From assembly GCA_028277795.1 (NCBI GenBank), contig JANQFP010000208.1, positions 3,751 through 67,750 on the forward strand: 64,000 bases of DNA, written 5' to 3'. The notes under the pieces were generated by a model that did not search any database, was not told the origin of the DNA, and was given only the letters and a program-made list of their open reading frames with translations. The first letter of the stretch is position 1, and the number at the start of each line of letters is the position of its first letter. The stretch is from Rhodospirillales bacterium (GTDB taxonomy: Bacteria; Pseudomonadota; Alphaproteobacteria; Rhodospirillales; JANQFP01). The position numbers were made by a program, and so were the translations under genes. Shown here piece after piece: positions 1,876-21,689 of this stretch.

Positions 1876-1923
1876 GGGGTTCTTTCCGGCGACGGCTCGC
1901 CACCCCGTTGTTGCACGGAGCGG

Positions 1924-2078: not shown

Positions 2079-2094
2079 TGGCACAGGATTTGCT
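2079..2094 (+). promoter_or_regulatory. Sigma-54 (-24/-12) promoter TGGCAC-N5-TTGCT
   Basis: The sequence TGGCACaggatTTGCt matches the consensus TGGCAC-N5-TTGCW exactly. It sits 66 nt upstream of the ATG at 2160. An AT-rich tract (2042-2068) lies between it and the palindrome and could be a bending site. Confidence 0.8.
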
Positions 2095-2159: not shown

Positions 2160-2555
2160 ATGGCAGAGCTGTTTTCGCCGGAATGGATGGCGAAATATAT
2201 GGAGGAATGGAACAACGAGCCCGAGCTCGCCGCCGAGCTCGAGAAGATCGGGTTCAACTCCAACATCGCCTACGGGTTCGACAACGAGGACAAGCCGCGG
2301 GGCGTGCTCGTGGTCAAGAACGGCAAGGCCGTCGGTGGAGAGGCCTACGCCGATCAACCGCTCAATTGGGACCTCAGGGCGTCCAAGGGCGCCTGGGAGG
2401 GGTGGCTGACCAAGCCACCCGGGCTCATGGGTCTCGGCATGGCCTATACGTCACGCAAGCTCCGATTCAACGTCGGCGACTATGCCGGCATGATCAAGGA
2501 TCCGCGCATGGCCGGCCCGTTCATCAAGAGCTTCGTCGTTATGGGGCGGGTCTGA
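2160..2555 (+). CDS. SCP2 / sterol-carrier-like small protein
   Basis: The 131-aa sequence has the pattern SPEWMAKYMEEWNNEPELAAELEKIGF ... KLRFNVGDYAGMIKDPRMAGPFIKSF, which resembles SCP2-fold lipid-binding proteins. It is the first gene after the sigma-54 promoter. Confidence 0.55.
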   Translation: MAELFSPEWMAKYMEEWNNEPELAAELEKIGFNSNIAYGFDNEDKPRGVLVVKNGKAVGGEAYADQPLNWDLRASKGAWEGWLTKPPGLMGLGMAYTSRKLRFNVGDYAGMIKDPRMAGPFIKSFVVMGRV

Positions 2556-2558
2556 CCC

Positions 2559-3689: not shown

Positions 3690-3737
3690 TCCCGCGCCGC
3701 CGCTCAAGCGGCGGCACGCGGGGGGAATTCAGCGACG

Positions 3738-6700
3738 ATGGCCGAGACCCAAACGCCGCACCAGCCCCAGGACCCGTCCGCCCACGCGCACGGCCACACC
3801 CTCGGGCTGGCCGGCCGTATGACCCGGGCCTTCATCCATTCGCCGCTGTCGCCTCTGCTGCTGCTGGCCAGCCTGTCGGTGGGCATTCTCGGCCTGCTGT
3901 TCACGCCGCGCCAGGAGGACCCGCAGATCTCGGTGCCGATGATCGACGTGTTCTTCGGCTACCCGGGCGCGTCGGCCGAGCAGGTGGCGAGCCTGGCGGT
4001 CGACCCCCTGGAGCGGATCATGAGCGAGATCCCGGGGGTCAAGCACGTCTACTCCGCCTCCCAGCGGGGCGGCGGCATGGTCACCGTGGAGTTCGACGTG
4101 GGCGAGGAGATGGAGCCTTCGCTGGTCAAGCTCTACGACAAGCTGATGTCCAACATGGACAAGGTGCCGCCCGGGGTCACCGAGCCCCTGGTCAAGCCCA
4201 AGGGGGTGGATGACGTCCCCGTCGTCACCCTGACCCTGTGGTCCCACGACCTGGACGACGCGGCCCTGCGCCTGATCGGCCTCGACGTGCTGCAGCGGCT
4301 CAAGGAGGTGCCCGACACCAGCCAGAGCTTCATCGTCGGCGGCCGGTCCGAGCAGATCCGGGTCGAGGTGTTCCCCGAGCGCTTGGCCGGCTACGGGGTC
4401 AGCGCCGGGCAACTGGCCCACACCATCTCCACCGCCAATGCGGAGCAGGGGGCCGGGTACGCGGAATCGGCGGGCGGCAGCTTCGAGCTCTACTCGGGCG
4501 CCTTCCTGACCCGCGCCGAGGACATCGAGCGCCTGGTGGTCGGCGTCCGCAACGGCGCCCCCATCTACGTGCGCGACGTGGCCCTGGTGCGCGAGGTCGC
4601 CGAGGAGACCCGGGCGCTGGTGCAGTACTACACCGGCAGGGCCTACGGGCAGGACTTCGAGAAGCGGTTCGACGTCAAGCCCCCGATCGAGGCCGGGGAC
4701 GGCACGCCGGCGGTCACCATCGCCGTGGCCAAGAAGCCCGGCACCAACGGCGTCACCGTGGCCGCCGCCATCCTCGAGCAGGTGGAGCAGCTCAAGGGGC
4801 GCATCATCCCTGACAACGTCCAGATCGCCGTCACCCGCAACTATGGCGAGACCGCCAACGACAAGGTCAACGAGCTGATCTTCAAGCTGTTCATCGCCAC
4901 CGGCGCGGTGACCCTGCTGATCTGGTTCTTCCTCGGCTTCCGCGCCGCGGTGGTGGTGCTGATCGTCATCCCGGTGGTCATCCTGGTCACCGTCTTCTCG
5001 GCCTGGCTGCTCGGCTACACCATCGACCGGGTGAGCCTGTTCGCCCTCATCTTCTCCATCGGCATCCTGGTCGACGACGCCATCGTGGTGATCGAGAACA
5101 TCTACCGCCGCTGGCTGATCAAGGGCGAAGTGGACACCGAGACCTCGGTGGACGCCGTCCGCGAGGTGGGCAACCCCACCATCCTGGCCACCTTCACGGT
5201 CATCGCCGCGCTGCTGCCCATGGGCTTCGTCAGCGGCATGATGGGGCCGTACATGGAGCCCATCCCGGTGCTCGGCTCGGTGGCCATGCTGTTCTCGCTG
5301 TTCGCCGCCTTCATCTTCACCCCCTGGCTGGCCATCCGCATCCGTCCCAGCCTGGCCAAGCTCGACAAGGCCCAGGTCAAGGAGCACCGCCAGTCGGAGC
5401 GCCTGGACGGGGTGTTCCGGCGCATGTTGACGCCGCTGATCGATCACCGGGGCCGCCAGGTCATGCTGCGGGTCAGCATCTACGCCGTGTTCGCGCTGCT
5501 GTGCGCCATGTTCTACACCACCCACGTCACGGTGAAGATGCTGCCGTTCGACAACAAGCCCGAGTTCAACGTGGTGGTGAACATGCCCGACGGCACGGCG
5601 CTGCCGGAGACCGCCAACGTCATCCAGCGCCTGAGCGAGGAGGTCCTCGACATCCCGGAGGTGGTCGCCATCCAGACCTACGCCGGCACGGCCTCGCCCT
5701 TCAATTTCAACGGCCTGGTCCGCCACTACTACCTCAGGCAGGACTCCTGGCAAGGCGACATCCAGATCCAGCTCCTGCACAAGAACGACCGCGAGCGGAG
5801 CAGCCATCAGATCGCGTCGGCGGCGCGCGAGGCCCTGACGCCCATTGCCAGCGATCTGGGCGCCAAGATCCAAATCGTCGAGATGCCGCCGGGACCGCCG
5901 GTGCTGCAGACCATCGTGGCCGAGATCTACGGGCCCGACCAGCACACCCGGCGCAAGGTGGCGCGCGACATCACCGGCCTGTTCGAGGAGGCGCCGAGCG
6001 TCGTCGACGTCGACAATTACCTGCAGGACCCCTACGAGATCTGGCGCTTCGTAGTCGACCGCGAGAAGGCGGTCCGGCGCGGCGTGTCGGTGGAGGACGT
6101 CAACACCCAGCTCGGCATGGTCATGGGCGACTTCAAGCTCGGCGACGTCAAGGTCGGACGGGTCCTGGAGCCGCGCTACATCACCCTGCAGGCTCCCATG
6201 GCCCTGCGCAGCCAATTCTCGCGCATGGGCGAGCTGCCGATCCCGTCGTCCCAGGGCAACCTGATCCCGCTGGGCGAGCTCGGCCAGTTCGAGCGCATCA
6301 CCCAGGATCCCATCGTATTCCACAAGGACCTGCGTCCCGTCGAGTACGTGACCGGCGACGTGGCCGGCCGCCTCGGTGCGCCCATCTACGGCATGCTGGA
6401 GGTCGAGGATCTCCTCGCGGATTACGTGGCGCCGGACGGTATCCGCGTGGAGACCGAGTACCTGGGACCGCCCAAGGACAGCTTCGCGTCGGCCTTCGAG
6501 TGGACCGGCGAATGGACGGTCACCTACGAGACCTTCCGCGACATGGGCCTGGCCTTCGCCGCCGCCATGGTCCTGATCTACATGCTGGTGGTGTGGGAGT
6601 TCGGCAACTTCCGGCTGCCGGGGATCATCATGGCGCCGATTCCGCTCACCTTGATCGGCATCATTCCGGGCCACTGGTTGTTCGACGCAGAGTTCACCGC

Positions 6701-7988
6701 AACCTCGATGATCGGGTTCATCGCCCTGGCCGGCATCATCGTGCGCAACTCCATCCTGTTGGTGGATTTCTCCAAGCAGGCGGTGGAGGCGGGCACCGAT
6801 CTCAGGGAGGCGGTCATTCAATCCTGCCGTACCCGGACCCGGCCTATCCTGATCACCGCTTTCGCCCTGGTGCTGGGCTCGAGCGTCATCCTCACCGACC
6901 CCATCTTCGAAGGGATGGCCATCTCGCTGATGTTCGGGGTCATGGTCTCGACCCTGCTCACCCTCGTCATCATCCCGCTGGGCTGCGTCCGGGCCAGGAA
7001 CTCCTTCGCCATTCCGCCTGCCGACCCGGCGGTCGCTGCTGCGGCGCCGGCCCCGGCCATGGCGGCCCCGGCCGCCGCGGGCGCCGCCGCGGCACCGGGC
7101 GCCGCAGCGTCGCCGACCGGTTTCGCCGATGAAGCCGGAAAGCCGGGCCGCCTGGCCAGGATCGGGCGGGCGGTGTTCATGGCGCCGGCCATTCTGCTCA
7201 TGTTCCTGGGTGCCGCCCTGCAGACCATCTTCGGGCGGTTCCAGAAGTTCCCGCCGGTCCGCTGGATCACCATGATCGTCTACGGCCTGCGGGCGCTGCC
7301 GTATTTCGTCATGCTGTTCCTGCGCGAGACCTTCAAGAGCAAGGGCGGCGGAGACCGGGCGCCGCAGCCGGCCGCCGCCGCGCCGGCGCCTTCGGCCCCG
7401 CCAGCCGCCGCGGAGCCCGCGGCGCCGCAGCCACCCGCGCCGGCAGCGCCACCCGAACCGGAGCCGGCCCCGGAGCCGGTCGTGCCGTCGGAGCCCGTTC
7501 CGGAGCCCGCCGAGCTGGCTTCGGAGCCTGCGCCCGAGCCGGCCCCTCCGCCTGCCGCCTCGGAACCGGCGAGCCCGGTCCGGCCGGCCGAGAAGCCTGC
7601 CCGCAAACCGGTCGCCACGGAGCGCCGGACCATCAAGCCGAAACCGCCGGCGCCGCGGCCCGAGGCACCTTCGACGCCCGCCGCCACCGGCGATGCGGCC
7701 GAGGCCGGACGGGAGCGCGAGACCACGGCGGCGCCGGCGCCGGCCCGGCCCGGCAAACGCGCCATCCGGCCGCGCCCCATCGCTCCGAAGAAGGCCGCTG
7801 CGACGGGGCCTGCCGAGGCGGGGAAAGCCGAGCGGCCGGCCGCCAAGACCGCCAAAGCCCCTGGTAAGAAGCCCGCCGCCGACGAGAAACCATCGCCGAC
7901 CGGCCGGCGTCCCGGCGAGCGCCGCGGCATTCGCCTCAGAATCAAGCCCGGCCAGGGAAAGAAGCCGGGACCGGAAGGGAGTCGGTGA
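3738..7988 (+). CDS. RND efflux permease (AcrB/COG0841-like) with an atypical ~330-aa C-terminal extension
   Basis: The 12-TM RND core has typical motifs (FALIFSIGILVDDAIVVIENI, GFIALAGIIVRNSILLVDF) and ends near nt 7000. The frame then stays open for about another 330 codons, encoding two extra hydrophobic helices and a Pro/Ala/Lys-rich tail. Confidence 0.9.
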   Translation: MAETQTPHQPQDPSAHAHGHTLGLAGRMTRAFIHSPLSPLLLLASLSVGILGLLFTPRQEDPQISVPMIDVFFGYPGASAEQVASLAVDPLERIMSEIPGVKHVYSASQRGGGMVTVEFDVGEEMEPSLVKLYDKLMSNMDKVPPGVTEPLVKPKGVDDVPVVTLTLWSHDLDDAALRLIGLDVLQRLKEVPDTSQSFIVGGRSEQIRVEVFPERLAGYGVSAGQLAHTISTANAEQGAGYAESAGGSFELYSGAFLTRAEDIERLVVGVRNGAPIYVRDVALVREVAEETRALVQYYTGRAYGQDFEKRFDVKPPIEAGDGTPAVTIAVAKKPGTNGVTVAAAILEQVEQLKGRIIPDNVQIAVTRNYGETANDKVNELIFKLFIATGAVTLLIWFFLGFRAAVVVLIVIPVVILVTVFSAWLLGYTIDRVSLFALIFSIGILVDDAIVVIENIYRRWLIKGEVDTETSVDAVREVGNPTILATFTVIAALLPMGFVSGMMGPYMEPIPVLGSVAMLFSLFAAFIFTPWLAIRIRPSLAKLDKAQVKEHRQSERLDGVFRRMLTPLIDHRGRQVMLRVSIYAVFALLCAMFYTTHVTVKMLPFDNKPEFNVVVNMPDGTALPETANVIQRLSEEVLDIPEVVAIQTYAGTASPFNFNGLVRHYYLRQDSWQGDIQIQLLHKNDRERSSHQIASAAREALTPIASDLGAKIQIVEMPPGPPVLQTIVAEIYGPDQHTRRKVARDITGLFEEAPSVVDVDNYLQDPYEIWRFVVDREKAVRRGVSVEDVNTQLGMVMGDFKLGDVKVGRVLEPRYITLQAPMALRSQFSRMGELPIPSSQGNLIPLGELGQFERITQDPIVFHKDLRPVEYVTGDVAGRLGAPIYGMLEVEDLLADYVAPDGIRVETEYLGPPKDSFASAFEWTGEWTVTYETFRDMGLAFAAAMVLIYMLVVWEFGNFRLPGIIMAPIPLTLIGIIPGHWLFDAEFTATSMIGFIALAGIIVRNSILLVDFSKQAVEAGTDLREAVIQSCRTRTRPILITAFALVLGSSVILTDPIFEGMAISLMFGVMVSTLLTLVIIPLGCVRARNSFAIPPADPAVAAAAPAPAMAAPAAAGAAAAPGAAASPTGFADEAGKPGRLARIGRAVFMAPAILLMFLGAALQTIFGRFQKFPPVRWITMIVYGLRALPYFVMLFLRETFKSKGGGDRAPQPAAAAPAPSAPPAAAEPAAPQPPAPAAPPEPEPAPEPVVPSEPVPEPAELASEPAPEPAPPPAASEPASPVRPAEKPARKPVATERRTIKPKPPAPRPEAPSTPAATGDAAEAGRERETTAAPAPARPGKRAIRPRPIAPKKAAATGPAEAGKAERPAAKTAKAPGKKPAADEKPSPTGRRPGERRGIRLRIKPGQGKKPGPEGSR

Positions 7989-8704
7989 TGGAATTCAGAT
8001 CGCTCACCTGTGCCGTGGCGTTCGTCGGCCTCGCCGGGCTGACCTGGGCCGGGACGGCGCTGGCGCAGGGCGCCGCGGTGCCGGCGCCGCCGGAAGGGCC
8101 GTACGCCTCGGGCGAATTGCCGCCCGTGCATACGACCGAGCCCGGCGGGGGCTTCCCGCCCCTCGACTACGATCCCAGGCGCGCCTCGGTGCCGCGACCG
8201 GCGTGGACCAAGCCCCGCGCTCCTTCGATGCAGCGGGTGATCCCGGCGTGGCGCCCGGTCGTGCCCCAGCCGCGGACGAGCCGGGAGCCGACCCCGCAGC
8301 GGGGAGAGCAGGCGCGGACGGCGACTCCGGCCGCACGGCCGTGGCCGGGACTGGTCCCCTACCGGATGCCGTCCGGGACCTTGCCTGCGACGCGTCCCTC
8401 CGCGTGGCCGGTGCCGCGGCCGGTAACGCCGCCGGCTCCGGCCGTGACGCGGCCGCAAGCGACCGCGCCCGCGCAGATCCCGAGTCCGGCGGCACCGGCA
8501 GGCGGGGCCATCAAGCCGGCCCGCCCGCCGGAATCGGCGCCCAAGGAGGCGCCGACGTACGCGCCCTTGCCGGAAGGCGAGGGCTCGGTGTGGCGTCCCC
8601 GCGGCGAGGACCGTGAGAGGGCGCCCTACCGTCCGTTCCGGCATGGAGCGTCGTCCTGGGGCGGCGCCGAATATGGCGCGTCGTCCGCCACGGACTCGCG
8701 TTGA
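7985..8704 (+). CDS. Exported proline-rich protein (hypothetical)
   Basis: A signal peptide is present (MMEFRSLTCAVAFVGLAGLTWAGTALAQG) and the rest is ~25% Pro. The start overlaps the RND stop (GTGATG). There is no recognisable domain. Confidence 0.5.
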   Translation: MMEFRSLTCAVAFVGLAGLTWAGTALAQGAAVPAPPEGPYASGELPPVHTTEPGGGFPPLDYDPRRASVPRPAWTKPRAPSMQRVIPAWRPVVPQPRTSREPTPQRGEQARTATPAARPWPGLVPYRMPSGTLPATRPSAWPVPRPVTPPAPAVTRPQATAPAQIPSPAAPAGGAIKPARPPESAPKEAPTYAPLPEGEGSVWRPRGEDRERAPYRPFRHGASSWGGAEYGASSATDSR

Positions 8705-8724
8705 ACCAGGTGATCGGAAGTCCC

Positions 8725-9732
8725 ATGACAAATTCCTTGGCGCGCCTCGTTCTCTCCGCCCTCGCCGTGGCCTCGCTGGCAGCCGGCGCGTGGGCCGGCA
8801 ACCCGTGGCAGAGCCAGTCCGACTACTACGGCGGGGCGCAGCAGCAGGCTCCGTCGTGGTCGACGCCGGCGCCCTACACGGCCGATACCCTGCTTCAGCG
8901 GGCCCGCCCCTCGGTCCCGTCGGCGCCCGGGGTGCAGCCCTACGGAGCGCCGGGCGCGCCGCACCAGGCGCCGACAACCGGGTACTACCCGGCGCCGCAG
9001 CAGCAGTACCCGGGTACCGCGCCGCAGTATCCGGCGCCGGGCTACGGGGCCGCACCGTCGGACCAGCCGGTCTATGGCGGGCAACCTGGCGGCTATGGCC
9101 CGGGGGACTACGGAGGCGGCATCCCGCCGACCCAATTCCCCTCGGCGGCCAGCCCTTATGCGCCGGGAGGGCAGGTCTACGCACCGCCCCTGTCCGAATA
9201 CCCGCCGCTCGACGATTCCGTGCCGCCGCGCGCCGGACCGCCGCCGGGGACCTACGCGCCGCCAGCCGGCTACGCGCCGCAGCAAACGGCCCCGACGTAC
9301 GCGGCTCCGCCGGCCGGCTATGCGACCCAGCAGCCGGCACCAAGCTACGCAGCGCCGCCGGCCGGCTACGCGACACAGCCGACGACCACCTACGCGCCGG
9401 CGGGGACGCAGGCCGCGCCGGTGATCACATACCCTCAGGCAACCGTGGTGGCGCCGCAAGTCGGCTATCCGGCCTACGGAGTGCCGGGGCTGGGATACGG
9501 CGGCCTCGGCCATCCGGGTCTGGGCTACGGTCTCGGGTACGGCGGCCTGGGCTACGGTCTGGGCTATCCGGGGCTGGGATACGGCGGCCTCGGCCATCCG
9601 GGCCTGGGCTACGGTCTCGGGTACGGAGGCCTTGGCCACGGTCTCGGGTATGGAGGTCTGGGTTACGGGGGTCTGGGTTACGGGGGGCTCGGTTATCCGT
9701 GGTTGGGCGGATTTCCGGGGCTCACATGGTGA
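8725..9732 (+). CDS. Exported Pro/Tyr/Gln-rich protein with a C-terminal GLGYG repeat array
   Basis: The signal peptide is MTNSLARLVLSALAVASLAAGAWA. It is followed by YAPP/YPAP repeats and then (P)GLGYGGLGH / GLGYG repeats, ending in GFPGLTW. The ATG at 8725 is preferred over the TTG at 8701. Confidence 0.6.
   Translation: MTNSLARLVLSALAVASLAAGAWAGNPWQSQSDYYGGAQQQAPSWSTPAPYTADTLLQRARPSVPSAPGVQPYGAPGAPHQAPTTGYYPAPQQQYPGTAPQYPAPGYGAAPSDQPVYGGQPGGYGPGDYGGGIPPTQFPSAASPYAPGGQVYAPPLSEYPPLDDSVPPRAGPPPGTYAPPAGYAPQQTAPTYAAPPAGYATQQPAPSYAAPPAGYATQPTTTYAPAGTQAAPVITYPQATVVAPQVGYPAYGVPGLGYGGLGHPGLGYGLGYGGLGYGLGYPGLGYGGLGHPGLGYGLGYGGLGHGLGYGGLGYGGLGYGGLGYPWLGGFPGLTW
9484..9651 (+). repeat. Two tandem 84-nt units (~92% identical) encoding 28-aa PGLGYGGLGHPGLGYGLGYGGLG(Y/H)GLGY
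   Basis: I aligned the two units by eye (9484-9567 against 9568-9651) and found 6-7 mismatches in 84 nt, in frame. Confidence 0.85.
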
Positions 9733-9840
9733 TGGCCCGTGGCGGGTATCGTGTCGCCACGGGGCAGGACGGATACCGGGGGCGTTCCCTCCTTCCGGCG
9801 TCCGAAGTGGGAGAGGGAGCAAACATTGAGGAGTAAATCC

Positions 9841-10194
9841 ATGAGGAAAACTCTCAAGGCACTCGCCGTGGCGGGTCTGTTCGGCGCCGCCAGCGCCCTG
9901 CCGATCGGCGACGCCAATGCGTTCATGTTCAGCAGCGGCCCCGGCGGCGACGGATTCAACTTCAGCATGGGCTCCGGCGGCTACGGCTGGGGCCGTGGCC
10001 ACGGCTGGGGCGGCCCGTGGGGCGGCTACGGCGGCCCGTGGGGCGGCGGCTACGGCTGGGGCGGCCCGTGGGGCGGCTACGGCTATGGCGGCCCGTGGGG
10101 CGGCGGCTACGGCTACGGCGGCCCGTGGGGCGGCTACGGCTATGGCGGCCCGTGGGGCGGCTATGGCGGCGGCCCCTGGGGTGGTTGGTGGTAA
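9841..10194 (+). CDS. Small exported Gly/Trp/Tyr-repeat protein (GGPWGGYG repeats), paralog 1
   Basis: The ATG at 9841 follows a GAGGAG Shine-Dalgarno sequence. The signal peptide is MRKTLKALAVAGLFGAASALPIGDANA. The mature ~90 aa are almost entirely G/W/Y/P with about 9 GGPWGG(G)YG units, ending GGPWGGWW. Confidence 0.75.
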   Translation: MRKTLKALAVAGLFGAASALPIGDANAFMFSSGPGGDGFNFSMGSGGYGWGRGHGWGGPWGGYGGPWGGGYGWGGPWGGYGYGGPWGGGYGYGGPWGGYGYGGPWGGYGGGPWGGWW

Positions 10195-10213
10195 ACACCG
10201 GCTCTGGCTGGTC

Positions 10214-10236
10214 GGACGGCCCTTATTCGGCCGTCC
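10214..10236 (+). terminator. Hairpin GGACGGCC-cttattc-GGCCGTCC downstream of paralog 1
   Basis: It has a perfect 8-bp GC stem and lies 20 nt after the stop codon. There is no U-tract, so the terminator call is tentative. Confidence 0.4.
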
Positions 10237-10394
10237 GGCTGGCCGCCACCACACACACTTGAAAGGGTCCTGCCGAGGTTAGGTCGCGTGATGCGGCGGG
10301 GCCCGCGGTCCCACAGGGGAGGACGGATGCCGGGGGTTTTCCCTCCTTCCGGCATTCGAGGTGGGAGAGGGAACAGAGTTCGAGGAGTAGAGCC

Positions 10395-10727
10395 ATGAGG
10401 AAAACTCTGAAGGCACTCGCCGTGGCGGGTCTGCTCGGTGCCGCAAGCGCCGTGCCGATCGGCGACGCCAAAGCGTTCATGTTTGGCGGCGACGGCATGC
10501 ACTTCAGCATGGGCGACGGCTATGGGTATGGCCGTGGCTACGGCTGGGGTGGCCCTTGGGGTGGCTGGGGCGGCCCTTGGGGCGGTTACGGTCCCTATGG
10601 CTGGGGCGGTCCGTGGGGCGGCTACGGCCGGGGCGGCCCGTGGGGCTATGGCGGCCCGTGGGGCGGCTATGGCTGGGGCGGCCCTTGGGGCGGCTACGGT
10701 GGCGGTCCCTGGGGTGGTTGGTGGTAG
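10395..10727 (+). CDS. Small exported Gly/Trp/Tyr-repeat protein (GGPWGGYG repeats), paralog 2
   Basis: Its signal peptide is nearly identical to paralog 1 (MRKTLKALAVAGLLGAASAVPIGDAKA). It has the same repeat type, the same GGPWGGWW C-terminus and the same 74-nt leader. Confidence 0.75.
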   Translation: MRKTLKALAVAGLLGAASAVPIGDAKAFMFGGDGMHFSMGDGYGYGRGYGWGGPWGGWGGPWGGYGPYGWGGPWGGYGRGGPWGYGGPWGGYGWGGPWGGYGGGPWGGWW

Positions 10728-10742
10728 GCACCGACCGCGGCT

Positions 10743-10770
10743 GGACGGGCGGCCCGTTCGCGAACCGTCC
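10743..10770 (+). terminator. Hairpin GGACGG...CCGTCC downstream of paralog 2
   Basis: It occupies the same position as the hairpin after paralog 1, with a 6-bp outer stem. There is no U-tract. Confidence 0.3.
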
Positions 10771-10904
10771 GGCCACCACCCCGCATGCTCGGCAGGCTCC
10801 CGCCGCCGGCACGATCGCGTGACGCGGCGGGTCGGGTGACGCCGCACCGGTTGCGGTGCGGTGTCATCCCCCTGCCCGGCAATAGAACAAAGGGAGTGAA
10901 GTCC

Positions 10905-11783
10905 ATGCGGAAATACCTGTGGTTTCCCGCCGCAGTCTTCTTTCTCGCCGGCGCCGCCGGTGCCCAGGCGGGAAGCCCGTCGTTCACCGCGGACACCGTG
11001 CAGCGCCATCCCCAAGCCGGTGTGCAGCAGGGGCGCATCTTCGTCTCCGAGCTCGGGACGCGCATGGAGGGCAAGGACCAGCAGGGCCGCCAGGTGATCC
11101 AGATCACCCTGCCCAAGGAAGGCATCATGCGGGTGCTGTTCCCCGAAGAGGGGACCTACATGGAGGTCCAGGGGCCCAAGGCTCCGGCCCAGCCGATGCC
11201 CAAGCCGGACAACCCGTGCGCCATGGCGCCGCCGGAGAGCAAGTGCGAGCGGGTCGGCACCGAGACCCTGGGTGCGGTGGCGACCGAGCAGTATCGTTTG
11301 ACCATCAAGGACGCCAAGGGGCCGGTGACCGTCTGGTGGGATCCCCAGCGCAAGCTTCCCCTGCGCCAGGAGAACCCCGACGGCAGTTCCGTACAGCAGA
11401 CGCTTCGCGGCGAGACCCAGTACGAAGGCCGCCGGGTCGAGCACTGGGTGACGACCATGGTCACGCCGCAGGGACAGACCCATACCGTTCAGAGATGGGA
11501 CGACCTGGAACTCAAGATTCCCGTGTACCAGCAGTTGGGTGAAGGCACGACCAGCGAGTTGCACAACATCCGGCTGGTCAGTCCCGACCCGGCGTGGTAC
11601 CAGGTACCGCAGGGCTATCGGCGGGTGGAGCCCCAACAGCAGCAGCAACAGCAGCAGCCGCAGCAACAGCAGCGGCAGTGGGGCGCCCAGCCGCCCCCGC
11701 AACAGCCCAGGCAGCAGTGGCGCGGTCAGCCGCAGCAGCCGCAGCAGCAATGGGGGGGCCAGCGACCTGCCTGGCAGCGGTGA
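10905..11783 (+). CDS. Periplasmic LolA-like / DUF4412-like protein with a C-terminal polyglutamine tail
   Basis: The signal peptide is MRKYLWFPAAVFFLAGAAGAQA. A beta-rich body follows (RIFVSELGTRMEGKD..VIQITLPKEGIMRVLFPEEGTYMEV). The last ~50 aa read QQQQQQQQPQQQQRQWGAQPPPQQPRQQWRGQPQQPQQQW. The ATG at 10905 is preferred over the track start at 10785. Confidence 0.6.
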   Translation: MRKYLWFPAAVFFLAGAAGAQAGSPSFTADTVQRHPQAGVQQGRIFVSELGTRMEGKDQQGRQVIQITLPKEGIMRVLFPEEGTYMEVQGPKAPAQPMPKPDNPCAMAPPESKCERVGTETLGAVATEQYRLTIKDAKGPVTVWWDPQRKLPLRQENPDGSSVQQTLRGETQYEGRRVEHWVTTMVTPQGQTHTVQRWDDLELKIPVYQQLGEGTTSELHNIRLVSPDPAWYQVPQGYRRVEPQQQQQQQQPQQQQRQWGAQPPPQQPRQQWRGQPQQPQQQWGGQRPAWQR

Positions 11784-12421
11784 TGATCACGGTCGTCGGC
11801 AATCTCAAGGGCGGGACGGGGAAGAGCACCGTCGCCTTCAACCTGGCCATCTGGCTGCTCGCCCGGGGGCGCAAGGTCGAGTTGTGCGACCTCGACCCCC
11901 AGGCGACGCTGCACGATGCCGCCGAGGTCCGCATGGAGGAGGGGTACGACCCGGGATTGAGCGTTCTCGACCGCATCCCCCAGAAGCCGCAAAGCGAGAT
12001 CCTGGTGGACGTGGGCCTGTCCGACCAGGACGCCATGCAAAAAGCCATCGCGCGCGCCGGCCAGATCCTGATCCCGGTGGCGCCGAGCCAGGCCGACGTA
12101 TGGTCCACCCAACGTTTTCTCGAGATTGTCGACGAGGTGGCGCCGAAACGGAAGCGGCCGCGCCTGGTCGCCTTCATCAACCGTGCCGATACCCATCCCG
12201 CGGCCCGCGAGAACGAGGAGGCGTCGACCGCCCTTCGTCTGCTGGACGGCCTGACCGTGCTCAGGCCGCGCCTGGCCCAGCGGATGGCCTTCCGCCGTTC
12301 GTTCAGTGAGGGCCTCGGCGTGTTTGAAATGGAACCTCGCGGCAAAGCCGCAAAGGAACTCGAGGCGCTGGCCATCGCCCTGTTCGGTCGCGGCCGTGGC
12401 AAGCAAAAAGACGAGGAATAA
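11783..12421 (+). CDS. ParA/MinD-family P-loop ATPase (deviant Walker A)
   Basis: The N-terminus MITVVGNLKGGTGKSTVAFNLA contains the deviant Walker A KGGxGKS/T. DLDPQ and a Walker B-like ILVDVG are also present. The start ATG overlaps the upstream stop (TGATGA). The part of the track ORF upstream of 11783 is an out-of-frame-gene artefact. Confidence 0.85.
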   Translation: MITVVGNLKGGTGKSTVAFNLAIWLLARGRKVELCDLDPQATLHDAAEVRMEEGYDPGLSVLDRIPQKPQSEILVDVGLSDQDAMQKAIARAGQILIPVAPSQADVWSTQRFLEIVDEVAPKRKRPRLVAFINRADTHPAARENEEASTALRLLDGLTVLRPRLAQRMAFRRSFSEGLGVFEMEPRGKAAKELEALAIALFGRGRGKQKDEE

Positions 12422-12438
12422 TTAGGAGAACACAAGAA

Positions 12439-13341
12439 ATGGCTACCATTCGTTGGCTGTTTACGAACCTGTTGATCGTCCTGGTGGTCGTGACCGGCAT
12501 CCTCGGTGCCGCCTATTGGCGGGAGATCCGCCAATACCTGGTCGTCGTGGCCGACGAGTGGGGCATCGAGGCCACGGCCTTGCGCACCACCGGCCACGCA
12601 ACGCCCCGTCCGGCCGCGCCGCCGCCGATGACGGCCGCGCCAGCCCCGGCCGCGCCGCCGGCGGCGGCGCCACAACCCGCCGCGGCGCCGCAACCGCCGG
12701 CCCCAGCCCCGGCCGCGCCGCCGAGCGCGGCAGCGCCGCCGCCCGCAGCGGCTCCGGCGCCGAGCCCTCCGGCCCCGCCGGCGGCCGCGCCGCAGCCGCC
12801 CGCCGCAGCGGCGCCGAGCCCCTTGATGCCACCTGCGGCACCCAGGCCGGGTGGTTACACACCGCCGCAGGGCACCTATGCCCCGCCGGCCCCCGCCTAC
12901 CGGCCGGCGAGGCCGGCCGCCCCGCCGGCGGCGGCTCCGGCCCCCGCTGCCCCGCCGCAGGTGACGACCGCGCCGCCACCGTCGGCGCCGGCCCCGGCGG
13001 CCCAGGACACCGCCGACCTGCGCCAAGGCTGGATCGAGGCGCGACGCGCCTACTGGACACGGGATCTGGAGACGGCCGAAGAACGCTACCGGGCGTTGAT
13101 CGCCCGCCACCCGGACCAGGTGGACCTCCTGGGCGAGCTGGGCAACGTGTACTTCGCCCAGGGTAAGATCAAGGAAGCGGCTTCGCAGTATTTCGAGACC
13201 GGGCTGCGGATGCTCGACGGGCCCAATCCGGCCCGCGCCGGCACCGTCCTCAGCCTGCTCGAGCGGCTCGATCCGGACAAGGCCAGTGAACTGCGCCAGC
13301 GCATGTTCGAGGCCATGCAGGGCCGCGGTCCGGCCCGCTGA
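12439..13341 (+). CDS. Membrane-anchored Pro/Ala-rich protein with a C-terminal TPR-like domain
   Basis: The N-terminal TM segment is WLFTNLLIVLVVVTGILGAAYW. A ~150-aa PAAPP low-complexity linker follows. The C-terminus is TPR-like (AEERYRALIARHPDQVDLLGELGNVYFAQGKIKEAASQYFETG). Confidence 0.65.
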   Translation: MATIRWLFTNLLIVLVVVTGILGAAYWREIRQYLVVVADEWGIEATALRTTGHATPRPAAPPPMTAAPAPAAPPAAAPQPAAAPQPPAPAPAAPPSAAAPPPAAAPAPSPPAPPAAAPQPPAAAAPSPLMPPAAPRPGGYTPPQGTYAPPAPAYRPARPAAPPAAAPAPAAPPQVTTAPPPSAPAPAAQDTADLRQGWIEARRAYWTRDLETAEERYRALIARHPDQVDLLGELGNVYFAQGKIKEAASQYFETGLRMLDGPNPARAGTVLSLLERLDPDKASELRQRMFEAMQGRGPAR

Positions 13342-13388
13342 CCGCGGCCGGGACGCGACAAGGAACGCCGGCAGGGAGGCACCATGTC

Positions 13389-13985
13389 ATGAACCTCATC
13401 CGCAACATCCTGGCGATCATCGGGGCTCTGGTCATCGTCGGCGCGGCCGTCGCCTATCCGACCGTCTCCCGCTTCCTCGAGTTCGACGAGGGGGCGATGG
13501 ACACCTACGCCGAGATGATGACCAAGCTCCTGGAGACCGGCAATCCGGCGGAAGCCACCGTCTGGAAGATGAAGGTCGCCGACGGCATCACCTTCGAAGA
13601 GCTGGAAGAAACCATGCGCTTCGTCGCCAACGAGCACAACTTCATGAACGTGGGCGAGTTGCCGTTCTACCGGCAGATCGAGGCGATCTACGAGCAGACC
13701 CCGGGATTCGAGGGCAGGAAACGGCGGATCACCAAGTTCTACCTGTTCTGCGATGCGCTGGTGGGCGCCGACATGCTGGACTACAGCGACGCCTACTCGG
13801 CCTATATGCCGTGTCGAATCAGCGTCGTAGAAGATAAGGACGGAAACCTGTGGCTCTATTCCATGAACATGGACATGATGATCCACGGAGGCGACCCTTT
13901 GCCGCCTAAGCTCAAAGAGGACGCCATTCGGGTCAAGAAGGTCATGCTCGACATTATGAACCGTGCGGCGTCGGGCGACTTCTGA
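13389..13985 (+). CDS. DUF302-domain protein with an N-terminal membrane anchor
   Basis: A TM or signal-anchor segment (ILAIIGALVIVGAAVAY) is followed by a DUF302-like core containing YMPCRISVVEDKDGNLWLYSMN. Confidence 0.65.
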   Translation: MNLIRNILAIIGALVIVGAAVAYPTVSRFLEFDEGAMDTYAEMMTKLLETGNPAEATVWKMKVADGITFEELEETMRFVANEHNFMNVGELPFYRQIEAIYEQTPGFEGRKRRITKFYLFCDALVGADMLDYSDAYSAYMPCRISVVEDKDGNLWLYSMNMDMMIHGGDPLPPKLKEDAIRVKKVMLDIMNRAASGDF

Positions 13986-14058
13986 CCCATCGTGTTGGGG
14001 GGAGGGAGATGACTGACGACATCGGAAGCACGACGGACTGCGGCAGGGAGACCAGGCC

Positions 14059-15597
14059 ATGTTGACCGGCCCCGGTAAGACCCTGGCTGCCCGATTGGCC
14101 AGCCTGGAGGCCCAACTGAAGGCTGAGCATCCTGACCTCCTGGAGGCGGTGCCCACCTACAAGCGCATGGATCGGCTGCTCTATGGCATGGGCTTGATGA
14201 GCACCGACGAATCCCTGGCCACGCGCATTCCCTGGTGGCCGCTGATCGCGGTGCTCGGCACCTTCTCGTCGGGCAAGTCCACCTTCATCAACCACTACCT
14301 GGGCCTCAAGCTCCAGGCCACGGGCAACCAGGCGGTGGACGACAAGTTCACGGTGATCTGCTACGGCCCCGACGACGAGCACCGGGTGCTGCCGGGCACC
14401 GCCCTGGACGCGGACCCCCGCTTCCCGTTCTATGGAATGAGCGCCGAGATCGACAAGGTGGCGGCCGGCGAGGGCAAGCGCATCGACGCCTACCTGCAGC
14501 TCAAGACCGCCTGCAGCGAGGCGCTGAGAGGCAAGATCCTTATCGATTCCCCGGGATTCGACGCCGACGACCAGCGCCGCTCGACCCTGCGCCTGACCGA
14601 TCACATCATCGACCTCTCCGACCTGGTCCTGGTGTTCTTCGATGCCCGCCATCCCGAGCCGGGGGCCATGCAGGACACCCTGGAGCATCTGGTCGCCGCC
14701 AACCTGAAGCGCCCGGATGCCAGCAAGTTCCTGTTCATCCTCAATCAGCTGGACACCACGGCGCAGGAGGACAACCCCGAGGACGTGGTGGCCGCGTGGC
14801 AGCGGGCGGTTGCCCAGGCCGGCCTGATGACGGGCCGCTTCTTCTGCATCTACAACGAGCAGGCCGCCGTCCCCATCCCCGACGAGGCCTTGCGCCGGCG
14901 CTTCGAGGGCAAGCGCGACGTGGACATGGACGAGATCTACCGGCGCATCCGGGACGTCGAGGTACAGCGCGCCTACCGCATCGTCAACGTCCTGGAGGCA
15001 GTGGGGGACGACCTGGAGAAGGACGTGGTTCCGGTCCTCAACGAAGTCCTGTCACGGTGGCGCAAGAGGGTGCTGATGGTCGACGGCATCGCCTTCGTGG
15101 TGGCGGCGTTGGTGACCGTCGGCGTGGGCTTCGCCGTCGGCGGGGAGGCGGTGGGCACGGCGTGGCAGTGGCTGCTGGACGTGCATCCGCTTGGCCTGGC
15201 GGTGGCCCTGGCCCTGGTGTTCACGGCCATGGCCGGCGTCCATTTCGCGGTGCGCAACGTGCTGGCCCGCATGATGGCGCGGGATTTGCCCGAGTCCTAT
15301 GGCCCGGTGGAGCTGAACCTGCGTGAGGCCTTCATCAAGAACACCCGGTACTTCCGGGCCCTGTACCGTCAACATCCCGTCGGTTGGGGCCGCCGCACCA
15401 TGCGGCGGCTGCGTGAGATCGTCGACGCGGCCGACCGGCACGTGCAGCGATTGAACGACATGTATACCGACCCCTCGGGCCACCGGGCAAAGGCCGAAAC
15501 CGAAGCGCCCGCGACGTCGGCGCCCCCGGAGGAGGAGCCGGCGGCCACCAAGAGCGGTCCGTTCTTAACCAAGGCGGCGGGCGGCAAGAGCGGCTGA
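14059..15597 (+). CDS. Dynamin-family (bacterial dynamin-like) GTPase with a C-terminal hydrophobic paddle
   Basis: G1 is GTFSSGKST, G3 is DSPGFD and G4 is NQLD. A hydrophobic hairpin is present (IAFVVAALVTVGVGFAV ... LAVALALVFTAMAGVHFAV). Confidence 0.8.
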   Translation: MLTGPGKTLAARLASLEAQLKAEHPDLLEAVPTYKRMDRLLYGMGLMSTDESLATRIPWWPLIAVLGTFSSGKSTFINHYLGLKLQATGNQAVDDKFTVICYGPDDEHRVLPGTALDADPRFPFYGMSAEIDKVAAGEGKRIDAYLQLKTACSEALRGKILIDSPGFDADDQRRSTLRLTDHIIDLSDLVLVFFDARHPEPGAMQDTLEHLVAANLKRPDASKFLFILNQLDTTAQEDNPEDVVAAWQRAVAQAGLMTGRFFCIYNEQAAVPIPDEALRRRFEGKRDVDMDEIYRRIRDVEVQRAYRIVNVLEAVGDDLEKDVVPVLNEVLSRWRKRVLMVDGIAFVVAALVTVGVGFAVGGEAVGTAWQWLLDVHPLGLAVALALVFTAMAGVHFAVRNVLARMMARDLPESYGPVELNLREAFIKNTRYFRALYRQHPVGWGRRTMRRLREIVDAADRHVQRLNDMYTDPSGHRAKAETEAPATSAPPEEEPAATKSGPFLTKAAGGKSG

Positions 15598-15623: not shown

Positions 15624-16064
15624 TCAGTCCGACCGTTCCTCGCGGACCACCAGGACCGACACCTTGGAATGGCGGACCACGTGGCCGGCGTTGGGGCCGA
15701 GCAGGTAGTCGCTCATCTCCGGCCGGTGCGAGCCCATGACGATGAGGTCGGCGCCGATGCGCTCGGCGACGTCGACGATCACCGCGTAGGGGGTGCCCCA
15801 CTCGAGGATGCGGTGCGCGTTCACGTCCTTGGGCACCCGCTCCTCCATGAAGGCATCCAGGTCGCGGTCCAGGGTCTCGGTGAGCCGGGTCAGAGTGTCT
15901 TCCTGCAGGTACATGCCGACCAGACTCATGGGCAGGTTGGGCACCACCGTCAGCACGTGCAGGGTCGAGCCGAAGGCCCGGCACAGCTCCAGCGCCGTGG
16001 GCAGCGCCTTGCGCCAGGACGCCTCGTCGTGCAGGTCGACGCTCAGCAGGATGGTCTTGTACAT
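15624..16064 (-). CDS. Universal stress protein (UspA family)
   Basis: The 146-aa sequence runs MYKTILLSVDL ... ADLIVMGSHRPEMSDYLLGPNAGHVVRHSKVSVLVVR, which is the typical Usp ATP-binding motif region. Confidence 0.85.
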   Translation of the reverse strand: MYKTILLSVDLHDEASWRKALPTALELCRAFGSTLHVLTVVPNLPMSLVGMYLQEDTLTRLTETLDRDLDAFMEERVPKDVNAHRILEWGTPYAVIVDVAERIGADLIVMGSHRPEMSDYLLGPNAGHVVRHSKVSVLVVREERSD

Positions 16065-16097: not shown

Positions 16098-17498
16098 TTA
16101 CTTGTACCCTCTCAGCTCGTCGATGTACTCGGGCAGGAACAGGGAGATCTCGGGCACGTAGGTGATCAGGATCAGGAACAGAACCAGGATTCCCGCCCAC
16201 GGCAGGGCGGCCCGTAGCACCCAGAGCAAACTTCGCCCGGTGATGCCGGCGGCGACGAACAGATTAAGGCCCACCGGCGGCGTCACCATGCCGATCTCCA
16301 TGTTCACCACCATGATGATGCCCAGGTGGACGGGATCGATGCCCAGCTGGACGGCGATGGGCAGCAGGATCGGGGCCATGATCAGCAGGATCGCCGACGG
16401 CTCCATGAAATCGCCGGCGAGGATCAGGATGACGTTGAGGACGATGAGGAACCCCCAGGCGGGCAGACCCCAGCCGATGATGGCCTCGGCGATCAAGTGG
16501 GGAATGCGCTCGGTCGTCAGCACATGGGCGAACAGCATCGCGTTGGCGATGATGAACAGCAGCATGATGGCGACTTTGGACGCGTCGAGGATGACCCTGT
16601 GGACGTCGGGATCGCCGGCGCTCCGCACCAGCGCAACGCCCATGCCGCCGACATTGCGCATTGCGGCCGTGGCGAGGGGCTCGTCGGGGCGACGCCATGG
16701 CACCCCTTTCATGGGGCCGATGTCCCTGTAGCCGAAGATGGACACGCAGTAGGCATAGAACGCCGACACCGCGGCCGCCTCGGTGGGGCTGGCGATGCCG
16801 CCGTAGATGGCGCCGAGGACGATGATGATCAGGAAGATGCCCCCCGACGCGGCGAAGGCCGAGACGAAGACCTCGCGGAACCCGGCCCACGGCTGGGCCG
16901 GCAGGTTCTTGACCCGGGCCGCGATATAGATGGCGACCATCAGCATCAGGCCCATGATGATGCCGGGGATGAAGCCGGCCATGAACATGCGCGCCGCCGA
17001 GACCTCGGTGGCGGCGGCGTAGACCAGCATGACGATGGACGGGGGAATGAGGATGCCCAGGGTACCCGCGTTGGAGATCACGCCGACGGCGAACCGCTCC
17101 GGGTAACCGGCGCGGACCATGCCTGCGATGACGATGGAGCCGATGGCGGCCACGGTGGCCGGCGACGAGCCCGACACGGCGGCGAACAGCATGCTGGCCA
17201 GCACCGAGGCCATGGCCAGGCCGCCGCGCACCATGCCGACGACGGAGATGGCGAAGCGGATGAGCCGTCGGGCCACGCCGCCGGTGGACAGGAAGGCCGA
17301 CGACAGGATGAAGAACGGGATGGCCAGCAGGGTGTAGTGCTCGGACAGGTTCTCGAAGAACTTGAGCGCCACGGAGGCCAGGGAATCGGGGGAGAAGAAC
17401 AGGATGGTGACGACGCTGGACAGGCCCAGGGCGATTGAGATGGGCATGCCCAGGAACATGCACCCGAACAGGATGATGAACAGCGCAGCGGTGGTCAT
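16098..17498 (-). CDS. dctM: TRAP transporter large permease DctM (copy 2, no cognate DctQ)
   Basis: It is ~80% identical by eye to the DctM at 18695-20095. The ATG at 17498 (MTTAALFIILF) aligns with the start of the paralog. Confidence 0.9.
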   Translation of the reverse strand: MTTAALFIILFGCMFLGMPISIALGLSSVVTILFFSPDSLASVALKFFENLSEHYTLLAIPFFILSSAFLSTGGVARRLIRFAISVVGMVRGGLAMASVLASMLFAAVSGSSPATVAAIGSIVIAGMVRAGYPERFAVGVISNAGTLGILIPPSIVMLVYAAATEVSAARMFMAGFIPGIIMGLMLMVAIYIAARVKNLPAQPWAGFREVFVSAFAASGGIFLIIIVLGAIYGGIASPTEAAAVSAFYAYCVSIFGYRDIGPMKGVPWRRPDEPLATAAMRNVGGMGVALVRSAGDPDVHRVILDASKVAIMLLFIIANAMLFAHVLTTERIPHLIAEAIIGWGLPAWGFLIVLNVILILAGDFMEPSAILLIMAPILLPIAVQLGIDPVHLGIIMVVNMEIGMVTPPVGLNLFVAAGITGRSLLWVLRAALPWAGILVLFLILITYVPEISLFLPEYIDELRGYK

Positions 17499-17655
17499 CG
17501 CAGATGCCCGCCCTCTGTTCGGGCGTGGACCGCCGGCATACGCGTCTCGTTGATCGCGGAAACCAAACCCGGTTCGGTGCCGATACAGGCGCACACGCCC
17601 ATCGGACGACGGCCTCCCCCCTTATACCCCTGCTTCTCTTGTTGGTCTGTCTTGT

Positions 17656-18651: not shown

Positions 18652-18694
18652 TCCCCGTTTTCGAGGGACGCGCCGGCCTCCACCGGCCGCGACG

Positions 18695-20652: not shown

Positions 20653-20684
20653 GTCGGGTTGCTACGCCGCGGTGTGGTCCACGA

Positions 20685-21689
<1,005 letters not shown>

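Follow-up and report, generated by a model that had tools for sequence, protein, structure and literature searches.

A conserved proteobacterial gene cluster that joins an RND pump, a ParA-type ATPase and a dynamin-like GTPase to sulfur globule-type exported proteins: a candidate envelope-organelle cluster

Background

How periplasmic sulfur globules are formed, enclosed, sized, spaced and mobilised has been a question for decades, and the sulfur-storing bacteria concerned include symbionts from which lucinid clams, tubeworms and flatworms draw their food. According to a 2025 review, invaginations of the cytoplasmic membrane can harbour intracellular sulfur; the only globule proteins that it lists are SgpA to SgpD. 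Here we report on a stretch of 64 kb from a Rhodospirillales bacterium (assembly GCA_028277795.1, contig JANQFP010000208.1, positions 3,751 to 67,750 of the forward strand; G+C 62-77%), referred to below as the window, which carries a cluster of genes for a resistance-nodulation-division (RND) pump, exported low-complexity proteins, a ParA-type ATPase and a dynamin-superfamily GTPase. Sulfur globule coat proteins are already known; what is new is the placement of genes for envelope proteins of the sulfur globule protein (SGP) type within a pump/ParA/dynamin cluster.

The order of the cluster is p131 - MFP - RND - variable exported-protein slot - g5 - ParA - TM-TPR - (TM-DUF302) - dynamin, where p131 is a protein of 131 amino acids (aa), MFP is the periplasmic adaptor (membrane fusion protein) of the pump, and TM marks an N-terminal transmembrane segment. 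On balance, we lean towards reading this as a conserved, previously undescribed envelope-organelle cluster of sulfur-oxidising Proteobacteria, the product of which would be a sulfur globule-type, protein-coated periplasmic inclusion together with its inner-membrane machinery. The author of an earlier note on this DNA knew of no described system with such a gene combination, and our full-text literature search, with subscription-only papers outside its coverage, likewise found no description of the cluster.

Conservation of the gene neighbourhood across two proteobacterial classes

The window was compared with 83 related loci (labelled by L-numbers; P-numbers label retrieved proteins), i.e., 80 loci from a scan with a dynamin profile (one genome per species) and 3 loci from contig look-ups. 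Partner genes were counted by tblastn with the window proteins and by all-against-all clustering of open reading frames (ORFs). Near the dynamin gene, the related loci carry genes for ParA (56 loci), RND (55), MFP (48), g5 (38), TM-TPR (approx. 35), p131 (21; often limited by the locus edge) and DUF302 (19). When the window is included (84 sources), the counts are 57 for ParA, 56 for RND, 49 for MFP, 39 for g5, 35 to 38 for TM-TPR, 22 for p131 and 20 for DUF302. ParA orthologues share 50-65% identity. Recurrence of this neighbourhood in more than 50 independent loci puts the arrangement far outside what chance would produce. Conservation of the neighbourhood had been set beforehand as a test of the proposed system, and the outcome was strongly positive across two proteobacterial classes. 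The DUF302 gene, on the other hand, which had been counted as part of the set, is present in only the 19 related loci mentioned.

As long ORFs arise in all frames at such a high G+C content, codon-position GC was used for the choice of frames. The nine consecutive plus-strand genes of the earlier note, which run from the end of the RND gene to the dynamin gene, proved to be real; the G+C content at third codon positions (GC3) of the nine chosen frames is 0.77-0.91, above that of every overlapping alternative frame. The view that the unit begins after the RND gene, conversely, had to be given up, as the RND permease, the adaptor and the 131-aa protein are among the most conserved partners. The unit starts upstream, and its core members include p131 (2160-2555, the first gene of the operon, encoding a predicted cytoplasmic protein of a family specific to the cluster), MFP (2559-3689) and RND (3738-7988), which together span 2160-7988 on the plus strand. 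Magnetospira sp. QH-2 shares the gene order of the window all the way from p131 to the dynamin gene, i.e., 131 aa, MFP, RND (1447 aa), four proteins of 176, 188, 130 and 287 aa, ParA, TPR and dynamin. An SQR-like (sulfide:quinone oxidoreductase-like) gene lies directly 3' of the dynamin gene in Magnetospira; this adjacency was rejected as a trait of the cluster, as it was seen in no other locus.

The hosts named in the record titles include Sedimenticola, Ca. Thiodiazotropha, Chromatiaceae, an Escarpia endosymbiont, Thiohalomonadaceae, Marinosulfonomonas, Magnetovibrio and Magnetospira, lineages which we take to be mostly sulfur oxidisers, many of them with intracellular sulfur. The complete genome of Ca. 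Riegeria santandreae (LR026963), with a size of only 1.34 Mb, keeps p131, MFP, RND, an SGP-slot protein, g5, TPR and dynamin. This symbiont uses the reverse dissimilatory sulfite reductase (rDSR) pathway and accumulates sulfur among other inclusions (PMC6486704).

The dynamin gene of the window (g9; 14059-15597, plus strand) encodes a protein of 512 aa with a Pfam Dynamin_N match (58.4 bits; cut-off 27), a P-loop (GTFSSGKS, aa 67-74), a DSPG motif (aa 163-166) and a two-segment hydrophobic hairpin (aa 336-399). These G domain motifs and the predicted membrane-binding element place g9 in the dynamin superfamily, as a predicted membrane-anchored member. The closest solved relatives of the g9-family profile are the G domains of EHD4 and EHD2 (E approx. 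1e-6), and no bacterial dynamin was matched. The family has more than 5000 homologues; those in Rhodospirillales and in Chromatiaceae-type Gammaproteobacteria show 55-66% identity, and identity across classes is 52-66%. In most of the 83 related loci, the dynamin gene is either colinear with the pump operon or divergent from it. In Alphaproteobacteria (i.e., Rhodospirillaceae metagenome-assembled genomes [MAGs], Magnetospira, and Rhodobacteraceae including Marinosulfonomonas) the dynamin gene closes the operon, whereas it is divergent from the p131-MFP-RND-...-ParA genes in Sedimenticola, Ca. Thiodiazotropha, Chromatiaceae MAGs and the Escarpia endosymbiont. The adjacency has thus survived both rearrangement and class-level divergence.

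It could be argued that the dynamin and DUF302 genes are neighbours of the other genes by descent only and do no joint work with the pump, the coat and ParA. The dynamin gene stands alone in Azospirillum and lies on the opposite strand in many Gammaproteobacteria, DUF302 is confined to the 19 related loci counted above, and gaps of 47-73 nucleotides (nt) separate the genes of the dynamin/DUF302 region in the window. However, the adjacency of the dynamin gene was kept through an inversion, in two classes and at 52-63% protein identity, as well as in the reduced Riegeria genome. Neutral synteny would not be expected to survive such divergence, and we regard this explanation as unlikely.

In 27 of the loci (L047:9371-9940, L076:9410-9979, L042:2320-2874 and 24 more), the dynamin gene adjoins a member of a further family, i.e., TM-anchored proteins of approx. 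170-200 aa with Met/Asn/Thr/Ser-rich, coiled-coil-like repeats, a conserved C-terminal FMPW and a sub-threshold likeness to DUF948. Shorter relatives of this family (e.g., L011:455-928) are found in 10 alphaproteobacterial loci, either 5' of the adaptor gene or 3' of the dynamin gene. The window holds neither the FMPW family nor its shorter relative.

The exported-protein slot and sulfur globule proteins

Five consecutive exported low-complexity proteins had been proposed to follow the RND gene. Their composition and signal-like N-termini were found as described (export of g1 to g5 was judged by eye from N-terminal K/R, a hydrophobic stretch and an AxA-type site), but comparison with the related loci shows that they occupy a slot whose content varies and do not form a fixed set. 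Three sets of proteins recur in the interval between the RND and ParA genes. The first set consists of Pro-rich exported proteins with a PPPxGxY motif, found in this slot after the RND gene in at least 16 other loci; they resemble g1 (7988-8704, plus strand; GC3 0.86), a Pro/Ala-rich protein (P 20%, A 16%) with the motif PAPPEGPY, the start codon of which (ATG 7988) forms a TGATG overlap with the RND stop codon (7986-7988). The second set, with an NPW start of the mature protein and a terminal W, is represented in L001, L003, L060 and L076 and resembles g2 (8725-9732, plus strand; start ATG 8725), a P/Y/Q-rich protein (G 21%, P 17%, Y 11%) with a mature N-terminus G-NPW, 15 GLG(Y/H) units and a final W. 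The third set comprises proteins of 120-150 aa with the motif GDGDF(S/N)M(S/N)FSGRG and G/Y/W/P/N repeats; they resemble g3 and g4 and are followed by g5.

The genes g3 (9841-10194, 117 aa) and g4 (10395-10727, 110 aa), both on the plus strand, represent a tandem duplication of 554 bp that includes approx. 100 nt of upstream sequence (84% identity). Both proteins are rich in Gly and aromatic residues (G 40-42%, W 10-12%, Y 8-9%), contain 7 GGPWG units each and start with an N-terminus that by inspection resembles a signal peptide (MRKTLKALAVAGL...ANA/AKA-F), so that they show the size (about 90-150 aa), the apparent export and the Gly/aromatic-rich repeats of SGP. A hidden Markov model (HMM) of the g3/g4-like slot family found an ORF just 5' of g5 in 20 loci, and its profile retrieved 183 proteins, most of which are members of PF17228 ("Sulphur globule protein"); several of them are annotated as "sulfur globule protein CV1" or "sulfur globule family protein". 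Relative to the PF17228 gathering score of 26.7 bits, the proteins in the same slot of Magnetospira (75.1 bits), L076 (49.4 bits) and L060 (39.2 bits) are above the threshold, and those of L033b (22.8 bits) and L003 (22.4 bits) are just under it. The sulfur globule-type envelope that the earlier note had offered as a hypothesis for the repeat proteins gains direct support from the same-slot orthologues and from the family profile, but the window copies themselves fall below the threshold.

We also built an external SGP HMM from 60 retrieved SGP-type proteins, with shuffled sequences (n = 500) as a control. Without the null2 correction, the N-terminal 62 aa of g3 scored 31.4 bits against this model (shuffles 17.3±3.4; 0/500 reached the score) and the N-terminal 56 aa of g4 scored 27.4 bits (shuffles 15.7±2.7; 1/500 reached the score); with the null2 correction on, 18/500 (g3) and 112/500 (g4) shuffles reached the N-terminal score. 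Judged from these sequence comparisons, g3 and g4 are best called divergent SGP-slot proteins that lie under the family threshold. They have kept the core FS/FN-MG motif of SGP; the N-terminal AWWGGGPW part known from SGP proteins is missing.

Many Gammaproteobacteria (L028, L049, L055, L081 and others) carry large exported basic proteins, rich in R/P/Y/Q, with (F/Y/W)RP repeats and unassigned to any family, instead of SGP, and the slot is thus best described as a fast-evolving cassette of exported low-complexity proteins. One may ask whether in the Rhodospirillales bacterium an ancestral sulfur globule cluster has been re-tooled for a different extracytoplasmic assembly, e.g., an elastomer-like matrix or a periplasmic inclusion of another kind. 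Such a change of use would fit the unusual GGPWGG and GLGYG repeats, as would the missing AWWGGGPW part and the failure of g3 and g4 to reach the Pfam threshold, the weak match of g2 to lamprin-type GGLGY repeats, the regulation by a sigma-54 promoter and a PAS-domain activator that is unique to the window (see below) and the lack of sulfur genes nearby. Against this, all other parts are orthologous (50-77% identity) to those of known sulfur storers and follow each other in the order seen there, the core motif of SGP has been kept, and low-complexity coat proteins diverge fast even among close relatives. We consider re-tooling the least probable of the explanations discussed here.

Several observations on sequences that resemble the slot proteins are given for completeness. 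The GLG(Y/H)G units of g2 gave a weak, sub-threshold match to lamprin (E 0.0016; 18.7 bits; cut-off 34). Lamprin is a self-aggregating matrix protein with GGLGY repeats from lamprey cartilage, and the match of g2 to it is a compositional convergence. A search with g4 alone gave only composition-driven matches, to small exported proteins of the G/Y/W type that belong elsewhere. These proteins (P0001-P0015) represent a separate, unannotated exported family of approx. 110-130 aa, with the conserved head FNFGNMMNPSRWF...DRDRYY, GGPYGWGG repeats and the conserved tail STIVVNPS...PRLPE, which was found only in metagenomes and in one Saprospiraceae MAG. In another retrieved protein (P0250, from a Chromatiaceae MAG), an SGP-type N-terminal part is fused to a long Q/E/K/R-rich helical region that by eye resembles the helical repeats of SgpD (L084:11135-11746).

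The RND pump, its tail motif and ParA

The RND permease (1416 aa) matches Pfam ACR_tran over aa 30-1081 (1.2e-144) and the adaptor scores 163.8 with the NCBIfam model RND_mfp (cut-off 94.9), i.e., a full-length ACR_tran permease adjoins an MFP gene, as in RND efflux pumps. The permease is under the cut-off of every NCBIfam permease model (best score 446; cut-off 1250), and no gene for an outer-membrane factor was found within the cluster; such a factor may be encoded elsewhere. In addition to an AcrB-like core, the permease has 2 extra TM-like segments and a disordered P/A/K-rich tail of approx. 220 aa, which from the predicted topology should be cytoplasmic. Near the C-terminus of this tail, a few residues before the stop codon, the motif RRGI(R/Q)LK is near-invariant in approx. 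48 loci, although the surrounding tails can not be aligned. The window carries the variant RRGIRLR (aa 1395-1401; 7920-7940, plus strand).

ParA (11783-12421, plus strand; 212 aa) belongs to the deviant Walker A ATPases of the ParA/ParF type, as indicated by its P-loop KGGTGKS (aa 9-15; 11807-11827) and by matches to CbiA (47.1; cut-off 25.4), AAA_31 (45.2; cut-off 27) and MipZ. Its closest solved relatives are ParF and Soj, and it is below the cut-off of the NCBIfam model ParA_partition (NF041546; 126.8 vs. 180). The TGATGA string reported at the junction of g5 and ParA is indeed present, the ParA start codon (ATG 11783) overlapping the g5 stop codon (11781-11783) in a second TGATG overlap, and ParA is probably translationally coupled to g5. 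No ParB-like gene adjoins ParA in the window; its neighbours are g5 and the TM-TPR gene. We had also considered Alvin_1737-1741 (annotated "cobyrinic acid a,c-diamide synthase" and co-regulated with dsr genes in a pyrite study) as the same ParA; these candidates were dropped, as their neighbours indicate NifX- and Mrp-type genes.

Loss of the tail was accompanied by loss of ParA in two lineages. L076 has a tail-less RND permease (1121 aa) and no ParA gene, with g5 directly followed by the TPR gene. In Ca. Riegeria santandreae (LR026963; L083/L005), the RND gene is truncated, with a GRRGIRLR remnant after stop codons in another frame, and the ParA gene, in which the Walker A motif is degraded and in-frame stop codons occur, has become a pseudogene (L083/L005 regions 5600-5700 and 8240-8790). 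In L078, the motif is in a shifted frame and ParA has been kept. Two loci have the motif and no ParA match, which is explained by their sequence ending too early. The joint losses fit a model in which ParA would act on the tail motif, and fall short of proof; a further candidate for reading the motif is the TM-TPR protein.

The prominence of the pump raises the question of whether the cluster is instead an envelope maintenance or efflux system, in which the RND pump would serve a hydrophobic or amphiphilic compound together with a LolA-like carrier, and ParA, the TPR protein and the dynamin would organise the pump. The exported proteins would then form a matrix, in the periplasm or at the cell surface, that has no link to sulfur storage, and the enrichment in sulfur oxidisers would stem from phylogeny or habitat. 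The best-conserved members are indeed the pump, the adaptor, p131 and ParA rather than the SGP proteins; moreover, in five loci (L042, L044, L053, L046 and L077) the RND and ParA genes are only approx. 0.9-1.3 kb apart and a coat protein can not be recognised, the dynamin family is far wider than the cluster, and the window contains no sulfur genes. On the other hand, PF17228 proteins occupy the slot in 20 loci, a symbiont with a genome of 1.34 Mb, for which the storage of inclusions including sulfur is a prominent trait, has retained the cluster, and p131 is very rare (161 representatives at E<=1e-3 among 1.84 billion proteins), which is hard to square with a general housekeeping role. We judge such a sulfur-independent system to be improbable, to about the same degree as neighbourhood by descent only.

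Further members of the cluster

The calls of ParA, a TM-TPR protein, a DUF302 protein and a dynamin made in the earlier note hold, with Pfam scores above the cut-offs and TM or hairpin segments where proposed. The protein encoded by g7 (12439-13341, plus strand) has a single N-terminal TM segment, which a long linker rich in P/A connects to a TPR domain at the C-terminus (TPR_16, aa 201-255; 34.0, cut-off 32.7). A (K/Y)R(D/E) motif after the TM segment is conserved in the family, and a crude positive-inside count that ignores the extreme N-terminal basic residues tentatively favours a cytoplasmic TPR domain in 24 of 31 orthologues. The accessory member g8 (13389-13985, plus strand) likewise has a single N-terminal TM segment, followed by DUF302 (aa 113-160; 36.7, cut-off 23).

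The protein g5 (10905-11783, plus strand) is a putative exported periplasmic protein of the DUF4412/LolA-like kind with a Q-rich tail. Its earlier description as LolA-like is supported through its orthologues (n = 16; 22-45% identity), among which DUF4412 was matched by 5/16 (best 1.7e-11), MucB_RseB by 2 and LolA_like by 1, but the window copy itself has no Pfam match. Two cysteines, C105 and C114, are invariant in the family. A single-sequence AlphaFold2 (AF2) model of g5 is all-beta with low confidence (predicted local distance difference test [pLDDT] score of 51), too poor for a fold search.

The protein p131 is exactly 131 aa long and shows 60-77% identity in most alpha- and gammaproteobacterial loci. 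Neither single sequences nor a profile of p131 gave a Pfam or Protein Data Bank (PDB) match, and the single-sequence AF2 model (pLDDT 39) is again too poor for a fold search; p131 may bear some likeness to the SCP2 sterol-carrier domain. A retrieved protein of 4824 aa (P0376) contains five stretches that match p131.

Regulation of the window operon

A sigma-54 (-24/-12) promoter, TGGCACAGGATTTGC (2079-2093, plus strand), is located in an AT-rich intergenic region 67 nt 5' of p131 and is the sole zero-mismatch sigma-54 match in the 64-kb window. The promoter faces the divergent gene of a PAS-domain sigma-54-dependent transcriptional activator (535-1938, minus strand; Pfam Sigma54_activat 1e-67, AAA_lid_14, HTH_8 and PAS), which is likely a local regulator of the cluster. 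The pairing of activator and promoter is specific to the window and is not conserved elsewhere.

A possible mechanism and its weighing

If the cluster does specify a coated sulfur inclusion, its parts could act together as follows. The proteins g1 to g4 would be secreted by Sec and would self-assemble as the coat of the inclusion; the RND-MFP pump would act at the inner membrane and pass hydrophobic cargo (e.g., zero-valent sulfur or polysulfane) to the periplasm, where the LolA-like g5 could serve as a carrier or chaperone for such cargo. Nucleoid-bound ParA would act on the tail motif of the pump, possibly through the TM-TPR protein, and its action would set the distances at which pump and inclusion sites lie along the cell. 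Remodelling of the cytoplasmic membrane, as it invaginates around the growing inclusion, would fall to the dynamin/EHD-like GTPase. In the window, the operon would be driven by the sigma-54 promoter under the neighbouring PAS-domain activator. The full proposal, in which sulfur globules are actively built by an encoded organelle machinery (the RND pump nucleating or feeding the globule, the LolA-like carrier and the coat enclosing it, ParA spacing it along the nucleoid, across the membrane, via RRGIRLK and the EHD/dynamin-like GTPase shaping the invagination), is considerably more tentative than the assignment of the cluster to a sulfur globule-type inclusion, and we put it forward as a possibility that we ourselves hold doubtful.

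A number of points weigh against a sulfur inclusion cluster. No sulfur-oxidation gene was found within the 64-kb window. For g3 and g4, no PF17228 match was obtained even at E<=10, and the whole proteins were not significant against the external SGP HMM, as composition bias removes the score; membership of the whole proteins in the SGP family was rejected accordingly, and their assignment would rest on position, a short motif and composition. The content of the slot differs between lineages ("FRP" vs. SGP), the DUF302 gene is facultative (19/83 related loci), and the co-loss of tail and ParA is known from two lineages only. Eight loci with full flanks (7 from Azospirillum and 1 from a Rhodospirillaceae MAG) have the dynamin gene without any of the partners, and the dynamin family thus also works outside the cluster. 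Because no sigma-54 promoter was found 5' of the p131 orthologue in 22 other loci, the promoter appears to be a local regulatory solution and was rejected as a conserved feature of the cluster. To our knowledge, sulfur deposition is not an established function of RND pumps. Finally, the sgp genes of Allochromatium vinosum are dispersed and monocistronic, with their own promoters and terminators (PMC10386293).

Even with these points taken into account, we favour a sulfur globule-type inclusion, by a narrow preference, as the product of the cluster. The cluster offers approx. 10 candidate genes that are common to free-living and symbiotic sulfur oxidisers, and the RRGI(R/Q)LK tail motif together with ParA provides a testable molecular handle. 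If the proposed mechanism were true, a ParA-type system would position a periplasmic body via a membrane protein, and a large conserved family of bacterial dynamin/EHD-like GTPases would gain a physiological role. The G/W/Y/P and GLGYG repeat proteins may also be of interest for research on self-assembling or phase-separating protein materials.

Genes surrounding the cluster

Outside the cluster, the window has genes for TRAP transporters, polyphosphate kinase 2 (PPK2; two genes), a member of the alpha-amylase family, proteases and a type VI secretion system. At the window edge, a gene for a LapG-like cysteine protease (BTLCP, Peptidase_C93; 90-515, plus strand) adjoins the sigma-54 activator gene. 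Downstream of the dynamin gene, a universal stress protein gene (15624-16064) lies between the cluster and two tandem TRAP-type sets (DctM-like and DctP-like; 16098-21677, minus strand), which are convergent with the cluster. The two PPK2 genes and the alpha-amylase-family gene are also near the cluster (21957-22904, plus strand; 23528-24505, minus strand; and 24668-26260, plus strand), and a PPK2 gene is likewise found approx. 4 kb from the dynamin gene in a Chromatiaceae MAG locus (L082). The type VI secretion cluster (43808-63998) has ORFs with the sizes and order of TssB/C, Hcp, TssE/F/G, ClpV, TssK/L and TssM, a call made solely from the lengths of the ORFs and their N-terminal sequences. 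No non-coding features came up when the window was scanned with Rfam and for tRNAs.

Comparison with known systems

As sgpD of A. vinosum adjoins an HAE exporter (PMC10386293) and could thus have belonged to the same cluster, this locus was included in the comparison. It was rejected as a representative of the cluster; the adaptor encoded after sgpD is only 26% identical to that of the window, no match to RND, ParA, g5 or dynamin was found in the sgpD locus L084 (a metagenome contig located by the published terminator), and SgpD matches no ORF of the related loci. The exported coat-type proteins resemble SgpA, SgpB and SgpC of A. vinosum (PF17228). These are small Sec-exported Gly/aromatic-rich proteins with short repeats, the orthologues that share the position of g3 and g4 are genuine members of PF17228, and the same role, i.e., the coat of a periplasmic inclusion, would be expected for them. 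The differences are that the A. vinosum genes are dispersed single units, whereas an operon-like cluster of 13 kb with a pump, ParA and dynamin is found here, and that the window copies are under the family threshold and have GGPWGG(Y/W)G repeats; SgpD is unrelated to any member of the cluster.

ParA positioning systems, i.e., McdAB of carboxysomes, PpfA/TlpT of chemoreceptor arrays and ParF/ParG of plasmid TP228, share with the cluster a small deviant Walker A ATPase that is encoded together with its presumptive cargo. The candidate partner peptide RRGIRLK is short and basic, like the ATPase-stimulating peptides of ParB, ParG, MinE and McdB. Unlike in these systems, there is no ParB-/McdB-like gene and no centromere here, the candidate partner motif is C-terminal, and the presumptive cargo would be a membrane pump backed by a periplasmic body, positioned across the membrane.

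LolCDE-LolA-LolB and the HpnN/MmpL-type RND exporters, which bring hydrophobic substrates into the periplasm, resemble the cluster in that an inner-membrane exporter and a soluble periplasmic protein of the LolA fold (in the cluster the candidate LolA-like g5) are encoded together and in that the pump is not accompanied by a gene for an outer-membrane channel. The pump of the cluster, however, is AcrB-like (ACR_tran) and has an adaptor, and g5 is DUF4412-like rather than LolA proper. With BDLP, DynA, LeoA and the eukaryotic EHD proteins, g9 shares the Dynamin_N G domain, the P-loop, the DxxG motif, the hydrophobic hairpin and the expected membrane remodelling; compared to the bacterial dynamins, it is shorter (512 aa), is closest to EHD4 and EHD2 by profile and forms a well-conserved family of its own.

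The magnetosome clusters offer an analogy of architecture. There is no homology to mam genes, and the proposed inclusion would be periplasmic and protein-coated, whereas magnetosomes are lipid-bounded and cytoplasmic. Nevertheless, in both cases one island combines structural or matrix proteins with a transporter, a TPR protein and positioning proteins.

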